Source: an uncultured Acidimicrobiia bacterium
GTDB lineage: Bacteria; Acidobacteriota; Terriglobia; Versatilivoradales; Versatilivoraceae
Assembly (NCBI GenBank): GCA_963786955.1
Contig: CAWBAT010000007.1
Coordinates: forward strand, 128,001 to 192,000
Direction of reading: 5' to 3'
Length of the DNA stretch: 64,000 nucleotides
Below the pieces are notes generated by a model. It saw only the letters and a program-made list of their open reading frames with translations, was not told the origin of the DNA and made no database searches. A program made the position numbers and the translations under genes. Below, piece by piece: positions 2,154-21,789 of the stretch. Position 1 is the stretch's first letter, and each line of letters starts with the position of its first letter.

Positions 2154-3788
2154 TTAAGTACCTCCATCTCGTTCCCGGACAACCCATCCGTAGTTCTCAA
2201 GAAATCTCAACAGGACAGGATCTTTCACCGAAAGCGGAGGCAGCCAGTTTCCCAGCTGGCTGCGGATCCACCAGGCGCCGCTCTTGTCCTGAGGTGGGGC
2301 AAACTGATAGTTGTAGAGTTTGGCTCGAATATAGTGAGGGGGCGAGCTTGGAAATGGATTGGTGGCCAAGAGTCCGAGCGCTCCTGGATCATTGTGCAGC
2401 AACTTCCAGATAAAATGTACAGTCCATGGGTACTGGTCGGGGCTGGACATGGCGGCGAACCATATTTGCCAATCAAGCCGGTATTGATAGGGGGCGACGA
2501 TACAGGGACGGCGATAGGGGTCGCCAGGTTTGCACTTGAATTCATATTCCTTCCATTGAGTGCTGCTAGTGATTGTAGCATCTTCTGTCCCTTCGAAGAT
2601 GATTTCATTGCGCATCTGGCCGACGCTTCCGAATGCGCCGTAGGTGTTGACCAGATGGAGTGGGTCAAAAGAGGTGTTCATTGCCTGTTCAGGCGAGAGC
2701 AAATTAGTGATGGGGGAAATGCTCAATACGGCGACGAGGACGGCCAGCACAGGAACCAGAATTGTCTGGCTTCGCGATGTCCGGGCGGTGTCTCGGGCTT
2801 GGGCAACTCGGGCAACTAAACTTCTAGGGAAAATATGACATAAGAGGGTGTCGTCAAAACAGGCCAGGGCCGGGACAATCGTCAACCAATTCAGGAAAGA
2901 AAGATTTCCGCTGAAAATCAGAATCACCTGAAAGGAGAAGAGCAAGAGGCCAGCTATATGACGGGCGCGGCGCGGCCCAAAGACAAACCAGGGGCAAACC
3001 AGTTCGTTGAAATGGTTCCAGAGCGCACCCAAATTGTGAAACCAGTGAGGCATGAAGTGCAGGGTGCGGCTGAGCGGGTTGGGAATGGGTTGCGTTTCGT
3101 AGTGATAGTAAAGGCAAGTGAGATCGCGCCAGCAAGCATCTCCCCGAATCTTGATGAGGCCTGCACCTAACATAATCCTGAAAATCAGCCAGCGAAACAT
3201 CCAGATGACCAGGACTGGCGGCGGTCGGCGGGGGAATGGCCGCCCATCCATCAACGGGCAAAGGAAGATTGCCAGAAACCCTGTTTCGAGCAACTGAATC
3301 TCCCATCCGTAAGAATACCAGTCCTGGCCGATATGGACGAAGGAGAGGTACAGCCCCCACAGTGCGGCCATGAGAATGGCATTGGCATATCCGAAAAGCA
3401 CCAGCAGTGAAAGGCCCGCGCCCAGCCAGCTTAAGGAAAGGAGCCACGGATCAGAGACACCGACCCAGAATAGGCTGGGCAGCTGCCAGAAGGCAGACCC
3501 ACGCGAACCGAGGAAACGCTCAGCCTGGCGGAGGTACAAATCGGCAGGCAACAAGCCGTCCTTCCCAATGAGTGGCAGGACCTGGTTGGCCAGCGATAAA
3601 AAGGCGACGAAATAGACTAGTCCTAGCCAGCGTAAAATTAGAAAGCGTGTCAGCCAATAGGGCTGCGGTTGCTGCAAAGACGCGCTCAGCCTCTTCCGGA
3701 GGGAGGTGAGCCCACCTTGGCCGAGGTCGATGTACGCCGAAATGGACGAAGACTGGTTCACTGCCACATCGGTCGGATTAGCATGCAC
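2154..3788 (-). CDS. lipase maturation factor (LMF1) family membrane protein
   Basis: GQDWYSYGWEIQLLETGF, CWRDLTCLYYHYETQPIPNP and PYQYRLDWQIWFAAM signatures. Confidence 0.92.
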   Translation of the reverse strand: MHANPTDVAVNQSSSISAYIDLGQGGLTSLRKRLSASLQQPQPYWLTRFLILRWLGLVYFVAFLSLANQVLPLIGKDGLLPADLYLRQAERFLGSRGSAFWQLPSLFWVGVSDPWLLSLSWLGAGLSLLVLFGYANAILMAALWGLYLSFVHIGQDWYSYGWEIQLLETGFLAIFLCPLMDGRPFPRRPPPVLVIWMFRWLIFRIMLGAGLIKIRGDACWRDLTCLYYHYETQPIPNPLSRTLHFMPHWFHNLGALWNHFNELVCPWFVFGPRRARHIAGLLLFSFQVILIFSGNLSFLNWLTIVPALACFDDTLLCHIFPRSLVARVAQARDTARTSRSQTILVPVLAVLVAVLSISPITNLLSPEQAMNTSFDPLHLVNTYGAFGSVGQMRNEIIFEGTEDATITSSTQWKEYEFKCKPGDPYRRPCIVAPYQYRLDWQIWFAAMSSPDQYPWTVHFIWKLLHNDPGALGLLATNPFPSSPPHYIRAKLYNYQFAPPQDKSGAWWIRSQLGNWLPPLSVKDPVLLRFLENYGWVVRERDGGT

Positions 3789-16673: not shown

Positions 16674-16830
16674 GTGAGGCTTAGGCTTTGAGAAAGCCTG
16701 AAGCCTACAATAATTTCAAAGGGCTTAACATCATGTTGTAGGCCGGGTCACCCGACCCGGCGCTGGAGATTGGACATTTTTCGAGAAGTGCAGCGGCAGG
16801 ATGCCGCTGCTTCACCTGAGTGCCCTGTAA
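16674..16830. repeat. cluster of REP-like palindromes
   Basis: gtgaggcttaggcttt..aaagcctgaagcctac; gtaggccgggtcacccgacccggc; gcagcggcaggatgccgctgc. Confidence 0.65.
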
Positions 16831-16860
16831 ATTAGGCAATATTGCGTATCAAGTTGTTTT

Positions 16861-17610
16861 TTAGAGATTAGAGGCATTGATTATCTCCACGTATTGTTTG
16901 ACCAGGAAAGGTGACAAGGCAGTGACTTGAGCGATGAACTCAAGGCTTTGATTGTGTTGGAAACAGGTTTTGACCCGATGGAAATCCTTCAGATAGCGGT
17001 CCACGGCCTTTTGTGAATGTTTGGTTTCGAGAGCGATCCGTTTCGGGTCTTTTTTGTCAAGGATGGCCTTTTTGACGATGGTTTTTTTGTGAGAGATACA
17101 AGAGCCAAAGTCCTGCAAACTGCCGCTGTGTGGGAGAGTGGTGTCATGTTCTTTTTCCCAGGCAGCCCGCAAGGAGGAAAGCCTCGAGTTTTGCCGCCAG
17201 CAAAAAAGGCCGATATCCCGCATGGTCAACAAGGCGCCTTGTTGATGGGCCTCGCAGCAAATACGGGCGATGGCCTTTTTAGCGATGGTTGTCATCGAGG
17301 AGCCCTTTGCCAGTTGCTCGACATCGGAAGGATCGACCAACGTCAACAGGACTGGGAGCAATTGCAGGTTCGGGCTGTTAGGTCTGGATTGTTGAGAGAC
17401 CGCATTCCAGACCATCTGGCCCGGCTGCAGATGATCTTTATGGGGCAACTGTTTTTCAACTAGCTCGACAATTTTTTCCGCCAAACGTTCGGCAAGCAAG
17501 GGGCCAAAAAGCTTGGGGCACTGGCTTTGCAAAAACCGCTGGATGGAAGGGCGGAGAAAGCGGTTTTGAGCAGAGCGGTAATGTTTTATGGATTGGGCCG
17601 GAGGATTCAC
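16861..17610 (-). CDS. DUF1670 domain protein (element ORF B)
   Basis: PGQMVW, EAHQQGALLTMRDI, LPHSG..QDFG..ISHK, HSQKAVDRY; 4-nt overlap with ORF A. Confidence 0.8.
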   Translation of the reverse strand: MNPPAQSIKHYRSAQNRFLRPSIQRFLQSQCPKLFGPLLAERLAEKIVELVEKQLPHKDHLQPGQMVWNAVSQQSRPNSPNLQLLPVLLTLVDPSDVEQLAKGSSMTTIAKKAIARICCEAHQQGALLTMRDIGLFCWRQNSRLSSLRAAWEKEHDTTLPHSGSLQDFGSCISHKKTIVKKAILDKKDPKRIALETKHSQKAVDRYLKDFHRVKTCFQHNQSLEFIAQVTALSPFLVKQYVEIINASNL

Positions 17611-18431
17611 TGGGACCTCCGGGTTGGGCGGCTCGGCAGATCGGCTGAGCTTTTTTTTAAGAAGCCCAAGAGTTCCTGCTGCCGGTGGACCGCCGGTTTG
17701 GCCGTCTGATGCAACTGGCGGAATTGCTCCACCAAAGGGGCGGACAAGCGAATCAGGAAAGCGGTGGTCGTCAGATCAAAGCCATGTTGGAGCAAGGCGG
17801 CACAGCGTTTGAATTTTTCCACGTAGTTGGCCACTGAAGAAACGCTGTGATGAGAATGCAAGGCGATGTCGGAATACTCTTTGCCTTCCAGCCACAGTGA
17901 GACAATCAGGCGGCGATGGGTTACAGCTCGACCGATGTCTTTGACGGTGGAACGAAGAGGCGGCACCAGATTCTGCTGGCGCAATGCGGCCAAGTCGCCA
18001 ACCAAAGTGCGCAGGCCGCAATTAAACAACAGGGCCAGATCCTCCAAAGTCAGCAGACCCCCTTGCTGGAAGGCTTCTTCGGCAACTCGCATCAGACGAT
18101 GTTGCCGCAGGGCCGGGATGGTTTGCCGCTGCTGGATCTGGTTGTCTTCCTCTTTATCCAGCAGGGTGAGGGTGGCCAGCTTCTGAGCAGCTTGGGACAG
18201 CGGAACACCGGGAGGCACAGAGGCATCCACTACCATGAGTTGAATCTGTCCGGGCTGCACAGTGGTTGAGTTGTCGAACAAGGGTCCATAAAGTTCATGG
18301 ACTTTTTCGACCATGATCTGGGCTTCGAAAGGGGAACAATTCAGCCCCCGCTGCATGGCGGTCTTAAATTGAGTGTCAATGGATTTAGCACTGATGCGGT
18401 CCCAACGTTGCAAACTGGTGTTGTTGATCAA
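17607..18431 (-). CDS. DUF1670 domain protein (element ORF A)
   Basis: PGQI, EAFQQGGLLTLEDLA.L...RTL..D, PLRSTVKDIGRAVTHR; likely TTG start at 18431 after CAGGAG RBS. Confidence 0.8.
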   Translation of the reverse strand: MINNTSLQRWDRISAKSIDTQFKTAMQRGLNCSPFEAQIMVEKVHELYGPLFDNSTTVQPGQIQLMVVDASVPPGVPLSQAAQKLATLTLLDKEEDNQIQQRQTIPALRQHRLMRVAEEAFQQGGLLTLEDLALLFNCGLRTLVGDLAALRQQNLVPPLRSTVKDIGRAVTHRRLIVSLWLEGKEYSDIALHSHHSVSSVANYVEKFKRCAALLQHGFDLTTTAFLIRLSAPLVEQFRQLHQTAKPAVHRQQELLGFLKKSSADLPSRPTRRSQ

Positions 18432-18537
18432 GAGGGGCTCCTGCTGTCGAAATGAGTTCTCTTGCCCCTGGCATTCCAGTCGCCCTTCGGGCTCCTTCCC
18501 TGCCAGGGGCAAGAGAATAAGCAATATTGCACAACTA

Positions 18538-18910
18538 TAAGGGCGATAGAATTTTAGCCCAGGGCCAGCGAGGAGCAGGAACTCCTCGCGCCGCCCTGGG
18601 TCAGCATTTCAACCAATATTATCTCCTCTCCCCCCGAATTGCTCGCCTTTCGGCGATTCGGGGGAGAGGATGGGAGTGGGGGGCTTTCGTTGCCAAATCC
18701 TGAATCATGCGTTTCGTTGTGGTTGCAGTGTTTGTCGGAACGAAGCATGAGTCTTCGACCTCGACACCTTCTGACCCCCTCACCCTCGCCCTCTCCCCCA
18801 ACACGAAAAAGGTGTTGGGGGAGAGGGTAGGAATTCGTGAGAACGCTGACCCAGGGCGGCCGCAGCGGCTCCTCCGCTGCGGCGCCCTGGGCTAGAATCC
18901 AACGCCCCGA
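18538..18910. repeat. two inverted composite REP units (BIME-like) between the elements
   Basis: tagcccagggc...gccctggg and ccctctcccc...ggggagagg(g) hairpins present in both orientations. Confidence 0.75.
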
Positions 18911-19016
18911 TAGTTGTGCAATATTGCTTGTAGGTTTCTCTGGGGCGTGGAAGGAGCCCGAAGGGCGACTGGAATGCCCCAGAGAAACTGCGCAATTTCA
19001 GGTCGAGGAGGCTCTC

Positions 19017-19840
19017 GTGATCAATAACACTAGCATCCAACGATGGGACCGAATCACAGCCAAGTCCATCGATGCCCAATTCAGCCAGGCCATGCAACAG
19101 GGGCTGAACTGTTCGCCCTTCGAAGCCCAGATCATGGTGGAAAAGGTCCATGAGCTCTACGGTCCTCTGTTTGACTCCTCCACCTCCGTTCAGCCCGGTC
19201 AGATTCAAACCGTGGTGGTCGATGCCTCAGTGCCTCCTGGAATCCCTCTGGCTCAGGCAGTTCAGAAACGAGTGACCGTCACCTTGTTCGATCCCACCCA
19301 GGATGTGGAAACTCAAAAAACCGGAGGGATACCGGCTCTGCGTCAAAAACGCCTCTGTCGAATCTGCGAAGAGGCCTTCCAACAGGGAGGCTTGTTTACC
19401 TTAGAAGATCTCTCCGTCCTATTCAATTGTGGGGTCCGAACCTTGGTGGGAGATCTGGCTGCATTGCGTCAGAAAAAAATCATTCCCCCCTTGCGCTCTA
19501 CCGTCCAAGACATCGGCCGGGCCATTACTCACCGCCGCCTCATCGTTTCCCTCTGGTTGGAAGGTCGAGAGTATACGACATTGCGGCCCGAACTCATCAT
19601 GCGGTAGGGTCGGTCAGCAACTACGTCGAGAAATTCAAACGCTGTGTGGCCCTGCTGGCTAATGGGTTTGATGTCCCCACCACGGCTTTCCTGGTGCGGC
19701 TCTCTGCGCCCTTGACCGAGGAATTCCGCCAGCTCTATGCGTCGTCAAAACCAGCCCTCCACTGACAAGTGAGCTGGACAATTTCCTGAAAAAAAGCCCG
19801 CTCGTTCAGCCGCCCGCCGCGGCCGAAGGTTGCGATGATG
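19017..19840 (+). pseudogene. DUF1670 ORF A homolog, frameshifted
   Basis: GTG at 19017 after GAGGAGG; frameshift near 19575 and stop at 19763-65; collinear with 17607-18431. Confidence 0.75.
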
Positions 19841-20580
19841 CCCCAACCTCAATCCGTCAAACACTACCGCTCGGCAGGCCGCCGCTTTCTGGAAGCCTCC
19901 ATCCAGCAGTTTCGAACTCAATGCCCCAAGCTCTTCGGCTCCCTACTGGCTCAACGATTAGCCGAGAAACTGGTCGAACTGGTTGAAAAATAGCTGCCCG
20001 CTAAAAATCATTTGCGCCCCGGGCAGATCGTCTGGAATGCCGTCTCCATTCACTCCCGGCCCGACAGCCCCCGCCTCCAGTTGGTCCCCGTGATCCTGAC
20101 GCTGATCTCCCCGTCTGATATCGAACAACTGGCCCAGGGCACCCGCATGTCCGCCATCGCTCAAAAGGCCGTCGCCCGTATCTGCCGCGAGGCCCAGCAA
20201 CAGGGAGCCTTGCTGACCATGCGAGACATCGGCCTGTTCACTTGGCGGCAAAACTCCGCTCTCTCCAGTCTGCGCCTCGCTTGGGAAACACACAACGCCA
20301 CCACCTTGCCTCACAGCGGCAGCTCCAAGACTTTGGCTCTTGCATCTCCCACAAGACCACCATCGTGCACAAAGCCATCTTGGAGAAGAAGGATCCCAAA
20401 ATCGTGGCCTTAGAAACCAAACATTCTCAAAAAGCCGTCGATCGTTATTTAAAGGATTTTCATCGCGTTCAAACCTGTTATCAGCACAATCCCAATCTGG
20501 ATTTCATCTGCCAGGTCACCGCTATGTCTCCGCACCTGGTCAAACAATACCTACACCTCATTAATGAAATCGAAGCCTAA
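19835..20580 (+). pseudogene. DUF1670 ORF B homolog, frameshifted with nonsense codon
   Basis: M.QPQSVKHYRSA start; shift near 19910, TAG at 19991, shift near 20325; collinear with 16861-17610. Confidence 0.75.
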
Positions 20581-20757
20581 CGAATGCTTAAAAAATTACT
20601 TGACACGCAAAATTGCCTAACGATGGGGCTCTCGAAGGAGGAAGCGGCCTCCTGCCGCTTCATAAATGCCCAAACCCCTAGGCGCCAGCTAGCTGGCGCC
20701 GGCCAAGGCGGCAGCACGCTGCCGCACTCCAAGGGACTCACCTAAAATATTCCCCCA

Positions 20758-21789
20758 TTAAAACACTTTCCAGTAAGATCCGAAGTTTGCTTTTGATTTA
20801 GCCTGAATGACTTCAAATAGTTCACTGGGCCTCCAGGAACGCGGCGGGCTGCCATGTCCTGTCAGTTCGTCCAGAGTCTTGAGCACGCTGGTCTGCAGCC
20901 CTTTGAGATGGTAACCACCCTCCAATAAGAAAACCACTTTCCCGTCACAGACGTCCTGGGCAAGCGAAAGAATGGTTTGCGTGATCCCCGCAAATCCCGC
21001 GGGGGTCACTTCCATTCCAGCAAGAGGATCTTCAACGTAAGCGTCATAGCCCGCAGAGACAAGGATAAGATCGGGACGGTAGGATTTCCCAATCGGCGCG
21101 ATGATCTTGTCGAATACTAGATTATACGTGTCATCACTGGAATGGGCTGGAAGAGGAAAATTTATAGTAAACCCGACGCCTTCTTTTTCGCCGATTTCAG
21201 GGAAATTCCCTGTCCCCGGATAAAACGGAAATTGGTGTGTCGAGACATATAGGACATCGGAGCGGTTATAGAAGGCATTCTGCGTCCCATTGCCATGGTG
21301 TACGTCAAAATCAATGACCAAGATTCTTGAAAGCCGGTATTTTTCCAAGGCATACGCCGCTCCTATGGCTACATTGCTAAAGAGGCAAAAACCCATACTC
21401 CGGTCAGGTTCCGCGTGATGTCCCGGTGGACGTACGAACCCAAAACCATTTTGGATTTCCCCGGCTTCGACCGCATCGATCAGAACCAACAGACTCCCTA
21501 CCGCATGCAGAGCCACTTCATAACTTTCAGCGCTGGCAATGGTATCTGCATCCAGCTGGGTACGAGGTTTCCCGGATGTCTGTTGAATGGTGCGGATATA
21601 AGATGTCGGGTGAATGAGCCGGAGTTCTTCTTCTGTAGCGCGCCGTGGCTTGAAATGAACCAAATGATCGTGGTGCCCATAGGTCCGAAGACCCTCTCCG
21701 ACAGCAATCAGTCTCTCTTTTCTCTCAGGATGGTAGAGTCCGGTGTCATGGAGCAGAAACATATCATCGTGGACAATTCCTGTTGTCAT
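20758..21789 (-). CDS. histone deacetylase family protein
   Basis: HPE...R, RPPGHHAE, GFCLF.N, DFDVHHGNGTQ, SAGYD, LEGGY. Confidence 0.95.
   Translation of the reverse strand: MTTGIVHDDMFLLHDTGLYHPERKERLIAVGEGLRTYGHHDHLVHFKPRRATEEELRLIHPTSYIRTIQQTSGKPRTQLDADTIASAESYEVALHAVGSLLVLIDAVEAGEIQNGFGFVRPPGHHAEPDRSMGFCLFSNVAIGAAYALEKYRLSRILVIDFDVHHGNGTQNAFYNRSDVLYVSTHQFPFYPGTGNFPEIGEKEGVGFTINFPLPAHSSDDTYNLVFDKIIAPIGKSYRPDLILVSAGYDAYVEDPLAGMEVTPAGFAGITQTILSLAQDVCDGKVVFLLEGGYHLKGLQTSVLKTLDELTGHGSPPRSWRPSELFEVIQAKSKANFGSYWKVF

Follow-up and report, generated by a model that had tools for sequence, protein, structure and literature searches.

The window, by which we mean the whole stretch of 64,000 nucleotides analysed here, carries two copies of a 1.7-kb element whose sole genes encode two paralogous DUF1670 proteins. 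The copies and the parts of the intact one are arranged as follows:

16830-18539, minus strand: copy 1, intact, 1710 bp, with tips fixed by the empty sites L004 and L006
17607-18433, minus strand: ORF A, encoding a DUF1670 protein (PF07900, E 6e-39, 134 bits)
16861-17610, minus strand: ORF B, encoding the DUF1670 paralogue (PF07900, E 1e-47, 163 bits) and overlapping the stop of ORF A by 4 nt
18457-18517, minus strand: structured hairpin of the leader that separates the left end from ORF A, with a perfect stem of 17 bp
18909-20622, plus strand: copy 2, decayed, ~70% identical to copy 1, frameshifts and a stop interrupting both of its ORFs

Copy 2 is flanked by GCCCC and GGGGC, and its site is the inverted partner of the host repeat that also received copy 1. 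This repeat bears the target hairpin; at about five loci it forms inverted pairs whose members are separated by a few hundred bases (window 18546-18908 and genome G000). Both members of the one inverted pair in the window are filled, one with intact copy 1 and the other with decayed copy 2, and the two copies therefore lie head to head. The same genome contains a third copy on a different contig (L002, G000:C5), 100% identical to copy 1 across 1717 bp. Moreover, near-identical copies are present in sediment and soil metagenomes, namely in 20 public runs belonging to 14 studies, and the DNA contigs of runs X1 and X2 span exactly 16829-18545 before passing into a different flank. The gene adjoining copy 2 (20758-21789, minus strand) encodes a histone-deacetylase-family protein (PF00850, E 2e-93) that is apparently intact and unrelated to the element.

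Homologs of ORF B number 606 at E<=1e-5 and are named only “DUF1670” or “hypothetical”. Nearly all of them are found on contigs 1-3 kb in length, as is typical of repeats at which assemblies break. The element family is distributed over bacteria of several phyla and archaea, and full-text literature searches for DUF1670 and for insertion sequences without a recognisable transposase found no paper describing it. Both window copies represent an undescribed insertion sequence.

Both ORFs exceed the PF07900 gathering cut-off of 25 bits. At E<=0.01 this was the only Pfam family found in either ORF, with no DEDD/RuvC-like, rve or Y1 HUH domain, and no NCBIfam model matches either of them. ORF A probably starts at a TTG preceded by GGAG, as judged from the M-I-N-N starts of its homologs. 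The predicted model of ORF B (pLDDT 71.8) is mostly helical, with a helix-turn-helix resembling sigma region 4 and a winged helix, both within noise. Structural similarity search with this model using Foldseek returned nothing at E<=0.001, and VIA-align gave only helix-turn-helix and winged-helix matches with Z of 5.3-6.5, below the noise guide of the tool. The ORF B profile had 0 matches among PDB sequences; altogether, the structure and profile searches detected no known catalytic fold in ORF B. Residues invariant in the ORF B alignment (A1) include S13, R17, Y206 and Y240.

The ends of the element were located by comparing empty and occupied sites. The empty paralogous sites L004 and L006 read ..CGCCCT/TACAGGGC.. 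(in a longer view, ..TCTATCGCCCT/TACAGGGCAC..), the slash marking the insertion point, and the site occupied by copy 1 reads ..CGCCCT/element/TACAGGGC.. (..TCTATCGCCCT/element/TACAGGGCAC..), where the element begins with TATAGTTGTG.. and ends with ..GCCTAATT. It follows that the tips are base-exact and that nothing is duplicated. An unrelated Acidobacteriota chromosome with three copies of 99.8-99.9% identity gave the same result: its independent empty site L208 reads ..GCGCC/TTCGGCGC.., or ..CCGCGCC/TTCGGCGCTTTGCT.. compared to ..GGCGCGCC/element/TTCGGCGCTTTGCT.. at the occupied locus L034. The boundaries of multi-copy elements also back this placement of the tips. The 3-bp repeat that the initial annotation placed between the ends is not a target duplication, as the comparison of L004, L006 and L208 with occupied sites shows; the T ascribed to it is where the element itself begins (TATAGT).

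The target arms and the end palindromes of copy 1 are located as follows:

18540-18545, minus strand: target 5' arm CGCCCT, directly left of copy 1; the same six bases stand at copy 1, at the C5 copy and at the metagenome copies of X1 and X2
16822-16829, minus strand: target spacer TAC and 3' arm AGGGC, directly right of copy 1; empty sites read GCCCT-TAC-AGGGC
18521-18530, no strand assigned: left-end palindrome GCAATATTGC, 9 nt from the tip, at ~+3 to +12 of the predicted transcript
16836-16845, no strand assigned: right-end palindrome GCAATATTGC, 6 nt from the tip, matching the left-end palindrome of the same element and lying within the would-be promoter spacer

Reverse-complementary flank arms of 5-7 nt occupy the expected place at 12 of the 20 loci that have a left tip, for instance GCCCACC/../TGC-GGTGGGC and CGACTCC/../GGCC-GGAGTCG, where the chance of paired arms is ~0.4% per locus with four offsets tried; L043 is a thirteenth locus with paired arms, read by eye. 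At the loci without paired arms, just the C-rich left arm is kept. The target rule apparent from these sites is insertion directly 3' of a C-rich pentamer, which in most cases is the 5' arm of a short palindrome in the host DNA with a spacer of 3-4 nt.

Both ends of the element share a 10-bp palindrome of the form GCAAnATTGC, GCCAnATGGC or GTCAnATGAC, which covaries between elements and whose distance from the tip is 9 nt on the left and 6 nt on the right. In copy 2 the palindromes are found at 18918-18927 and 20607-20616, the second one being GCAAAATTGC. The element tips are not inverted repeats of each other.

A copy of the host repeat at L007 (G000:C5, ~1306037-1306144) reads ..CGCC-TAATT-TACAGGGC.., compared to ..CGCC-CT-TACAGGGC.. 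in the empty form, and its additional TAATT equals the last 5 nt of the right end of the element. It may be the scar of a lost insertion, formed via a deletion between two GCC triplets. The Bacteroidota copy L049 follows directly downstream of the end of an IS200-like (Y1 transposase) gene, and may sit inside the hairpin-bearing end of another insertion sequence.

Each copy carries, at its opposite ends, two hexamers that resemble the halves of a promoter:

16847-16852, minus strand: outward -35 TTGATA at the right end of copy 1, facing the right tip at 16830
18534-18539, minus strand: inward-pointing -10 box TATAGT, made up of bases 1 to 6 of the left end of copy 1
16857-16862, minus strand: A-tract upstream of the -35, UP-element-like, with A-rich columns in 15 distinct elements
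20600-20605, plus strand: outward -35 TTGACA of copy 2
18909-18914, plus strand: left tip GATAGT of copy 2, a weakened -10

The hexamers and the palindromes stand where the initial annotation had placed them. When the exact tips of copy 1 are abutted, they give TTGATA-17-TATAGT, the very joint that had been proposed with a 3-bp repeat in between, and no added repeat is needed. For copy 2, the hexamers of the proposed TTGACA-16-GATAGT hold, with a spacer of 16 or 17 bp because the tip of this copy is ambiguous by 1 nt. The two palindromes would come to lie on either side of the joint, as had been suggested, 15 bp apart, one in the promoter spacer and the other at ~+3 to +12. In the integrated element the promoter halves are 1.7 kb apart, and a promoter scan of the window found no sigma-70-like site upstream of ORF A in either integrated copy. 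Promoter-like sites (TTGAAA-17-GATCAT / AATCAT) recur at equivalent positions of the two copies, within the 5' portion of ORF B (17431-17459, minus strand, and 19983-20011, plus strand). They are weak (9/12), and the two sites found in total compare to a shuffle mean of 1.8, i.e. no excess.

The arrangement is conserved among relatives from several phyla. As scored by the own sigma-70 criteria of the promoter-scan tool, the joint is a sigma-70-type promoter in 15/15 distinct bacterial elements, with a spacer of 17-18 bp and 9-12 of the 12 consensus positions matched, these 15 cases not being fully independent because the elements are homologous. Nine of the joints have at least 11/12 matches, and L038 yields a perfect TTGACA-17-TATAAT. 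By the same criteria, the integrated left junction passes in 3/13. Among the 19 rows having both ends, the tip-to-tip spacer is 17 bp in 17 and 18 bp in two; five further loci, at which automatic end location failed, were left out of this count. The distance of the -35 from the tip, a check advised at the outset, proved conserved as well, with the start of TTG 23 nt from the right tip in 17 of the 19 rows and 24 nt in the other two. Of 26 homologous loci, 23 have a right end with the order C-TTGnnn, 1-2 nt, palindrome, 6-nt tail and tip; the exceptions are L035, L039 and L057, of which L039 has no TTG box in place.

At the opposite end, the left tip is TATnnT in 14 of the 15 distinct bacterial elements, and positions +1 to +10 read TATnnTTGTG, near-invariant save +4 and +5. 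The left-tip hexamers comprise TATGAT, TATATT, TATAAT and TATAGT, in addition to GATAGT in the decayed copy 2. Thus TTG and TA...T are fixed and positions 4 and 5 of the -10 vary, and the varying positions are exactly those that promoters tolerate. The 15 distinct elements share an A-rich tract at 4-11 nt upstream of the -35; it resembles an UP element and sits where one would be expected. Recurrence in 15/15 distinct relatives of several phyla puts the split arrangement, as read from aligned ends, beyond chance. The left ends of the Bacteroidota elements L052-L054 start with TATATTTG, and these heads fit the Bacteroidota -7 box TAnnTTTG (PMC9723704). The left end of L049, also from Bacteroidota, starts with TTTCTTTG; its tip TTTCTT is non-consensus, and the fit to TAnnTTTG is partial at most.

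Archaeal relatives serve as a natural control. In the archaeal phylum of L035, DUF1670 pairs occur in tandem and PF07900 is matched in 27/251 genomes. Six archaeal loci were examined, three of which were resolved by script (L178, L185 and L189) and one by eye (L205, which sits in a GGATT/CCGG-AATCC palindrome). The resolved archaeal elements retain the end palindromes at the 9-nt and 6-nt offsets, whereas TTG is found at the -35 place in 0/3 script-scored elements (CCTCTC, AGTATG and AGTACT), and the fourth, by eye, has CGGAGA. Their left heads are TACATC, TACTAT and TGAAAT, with TACCAT by eye. The palindromes, kept where TTG is absent, thus behave as core transposition signals, and the TTG box as something required by bacterial members alone, in keeping with a sigma-70 promoter.

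The leader between the left end and ORF A forms one long hairpin with the invariant cap GCCC-GNAG-GGC. Among 14 sequences, 19 of the 22 predicted pairs are supported by compensatory changes on both sides, and comparison of the leader against Rfam gave no real match. A role of the leader as a target guide RNA gained no support from a comparison of left-flank 10-mers with each leader, as the complementarity is not systematic: 7-nt opposite-strand matches between leader and flank occur only in copies 1 and 2, and other elements have at most 6. In copy 1, the opposite strand of the leader cap (within 18457-18517) contains TCGCCCT, the 7 nt of the target arm at the insertion point. The analogous 7-nt match of copy 2 sits in the leader stem and is absent in other elements. 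The match between leader cap and target arm may be chance in GC-rich DNA. In L049, the leader includes 28 nt that are reverse-complementary (93%) to the coding 3' end of ORF B (2012-2039 and 3697-3724). This internal inverted repeat also occurs in L048, L050 and L051, and is confined to this Bacteroidota subgroup.

We propose that exact joining of the element ends builds a near-consensus sigma-70 promoter that would drive the element genes and that is split upon integration, a reading to which we assign a probability of about 0.7. The junction promoter is strongly supported by comparison, yet unproven; of the interpretation first put forward, the comparative conservation in 15/15 distinct elements speaks strongly for the promoter, whereas the 3-bp repeat has to be dropped. 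In the integrated state, the -35 and the A-tract of the right end point outward and the -10 of the left end inward, and ORF A has no good promoter. Excision would then yield a circle of double-stranded DNA in which the two tips meet exactly, without any extra base. The rebuilt promoter would transcribe the structured leader, followed by ORF A and ORF B, giving a burst of protein only in the transposition intermediate. The two proteins are presumed to bind both 10-bp palindromes and to assemble a recombination complex. As the palindromes would lie in the promoter spacer and at ~+3 to +12, binding of the proteins should shut the promoter off. Integration would finally separate the halves again and destroy the promoter. 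We further infer that the DUF1670 proteins perform the recombination and regulate their own synthesis.

The same hexamers might instead be recognition or cleavage signals of the element's own proteins, with an incidental likeness to a promoter and no working junction promoter. The left end carries GTGT(T)CA beside its palindrome, which mirrors the ACAC/ACAG of the right-end box; as the ACA part of the -35 is mirrored in this way as GTGT, some of the -35 conservation could be a constraint of protein binding. Archaeal left tips keep TA..AT-like heads (TACTAT and TACCAT), so that TA...T may in part be a cleavage signal, and the C-terminal domain of ORF B resembles the -35-reading helix-turn-helix of sigma region 4, a weak likeness (Z ~6). 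However, the TTG has no counterpart in the left end, and it is missing from the archaeal elements, three by script and a fourth by eye, though these keep the palindromes. Moreover, variation falls precisely on the positions that a promoter tolerates, all 19 of 19 rows have a spacer of 17-18 bp, and an A-tract lies where an UP element would sit, so that we regard a purely protein-directed signal as quite unlikely. Less probable still is a role in which the right-end -35 activates neighbouring host genes and the left-end -10 pairs with a chance host -35, the junction having no function. The few integrated left junctions that reach the scan criteria (3/13) would agree with such a role, but past the right tip the target spacer and arm are G-rich and do not resemble a -10, the host flanks of the copies are unrelated, and the fixed 17-bp geometry from tip to tip would be left unexplained.

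A real promoter could also be built in head-to-tail tandems, comparable to IS21 or IS30 dimers, rather than in an excised circle. An identical joint would arise, and one metagenome contig is compatible with a decayed tandem: at L095 (locus 391-418), the left tip of an element directly adjoins 10 nt that equal a right-end tail (..TTGCCTAAAC). In place of ORF B, the end of an IS630-like gene and host repeats are found upstream. L095 may be the remnant of an end-to-end joint or a re-used site; it and L007 are possible joint or excision scars, and weak evidence as such. Against the tandem, no tandem copies were found among 28 genome loci or in the window's own genome, and the duplication-free, site-specific insertion seems to resemble that of site-specific elements which use circles. 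Looking for tandems in 401 genomes of one phylum would have no power, because the right-end pattern matches just 2 of them. Altogether, we consider the tandem unlikely as the source of the joint, and an excised double-stranded circle the most likely one.

The joined ends were also searched for directly in assembled contigs and assemblies, a search of low power in which a rare circle is undetectable. The Logan contigs of X1, X2, X7 and X12 (two DNA and two RNA runs), which drop rare forms, contain no right tip joined to a left tip. “Skip” joints in the run contigs are empty copies of the host repeat, and the RNA-run contigs cover most of the element and not the leader, a gap from which nothing is concluded. 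A metagenome scan with a loose pattern of right tail and left head gave at least 119 stretches; none of the 80 that were fetched has a -35 box and a palindrome upstream, and the matches are mostly chance in AT-rich DNA, the pattern being too loose. Two stricter junction patterns had 0 matches in viral contigs, a collection that may hold no copy of the element, and the junction pattern had 0 matches in the window's own genome. As these searches are blind to a rare circle, their zero results are no argument against it.

Promoters divided between the two ends and restored at the joint of the excised insertion sequence are known for IS3, IS30, IS21, IS256 and IS110 elements. The closest parallel is Pjunc of the IS3 family (IS2 and IS911), for which PMC3219604 describes, in the case of IS2, a -35 that faces outward from the right end, a Pribnow box formed at the IRL tip and a spacer that has to be 17 bp. 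The DUF1670 element shares with it the right-end -35, the left-tip -10 and the 17-bp spacer of the abutted ends, as well as two consecutive ORFs downstream and protein-binding sites that overlap the promoter, which are predicted in the DUF1670 element (PMC3219604). By contrast, IS3 elements have a DDE transposase produced by frameshifting, terminal inverted repeats, target duplications of 3-4 bp and 1-3 host bases in the joint, whereas the DUF1670 element has DUF1670 proteins only, no rve domain, no duplication and tips that are not inverted repeats. Its ends are asymmetric (9 nt versus 6 nt from tip to palindrome), and its 17-bp spacing needs an exact joint.

IS110/IS1111 elements, which often insert into repeated extragenic palindromes, provide a second comparison. 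Like them, the DUF1670 element has no terminal inverted repeats and inserts site-specifically without real duplication. In IS621, a member of this family, transcription from the RE-LE junction promoter yields a structured leader RNA and continues into the recombinase gene (PMC13626964); a promoter rebuilt at the joint, with a structured leader and gene downstream, is what the DUF1670 element would have in common with it. The proposed circuit would thus follow the logic established for IS2 and IS911 (PMC3219604) and for IS621 (PMC13626964). Differences from IS110 lie in the proteins, where only PF07900 and no DEDD/RuvC-like recombinase was found, and in the leader, which is a single long capped hairpin rather than a two-loop bridge RNA and whose target complementarity is not systematic.

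IS200/IS605 elements insert without duplication 3' of a short specific sequence, and their asymmetric ends carry subterminal palindromes whose distances from the two tips differ. The insertion site rule and the asymmetric palindrome offsets of the DUF1670 element are alike in this respect. However, it has no Y1 HUH transposase (TnpA), its palindromes are loopless 10-bp dyads, and the single-stranded circle of IS200/IS605 could not present a sigma-70 promoter. Altogether, the regulatory principle is known; what is new is that it would operate in a family without previous description, through an exact joint and with putative binding sites placed within the promoter.

A more far-reaching proposal, doubtful as it stands, is that the DUF1670 pair represents a new class of recombinase or transposase without a known catalytic fold, moving via an exact double-stranded circle, and that the junction promoter chiefly makes the covarying leader RNA as a partner in target choice or synapsis, be it guide, scaffold or decoy. 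The leader cap resembles the hairpins of C-arm, loop and G-arm at insertion targets. If this were true, the leader RNA would be a functional parallel to the IS110 bridge RNA, yet unrelated to it.

For the family as a whole, the junction promoter has consequences beyond regulation. Its 17-bp geometry is indirect but strong evidence on the recombination route, since conservation of exactly 17 bp argues for a double-stranded form with the tips joined to the base. The predicted joint, with its two palindromes 15 bp apart, is the product to seek and the substrate to offer to the DUF1670 proteins, and the base-exact ends together with the target rule can be used for annotating DUF1670 elements. The split promoter thereby provides the first concrete mechanistic handle on the DUF1670 element family.
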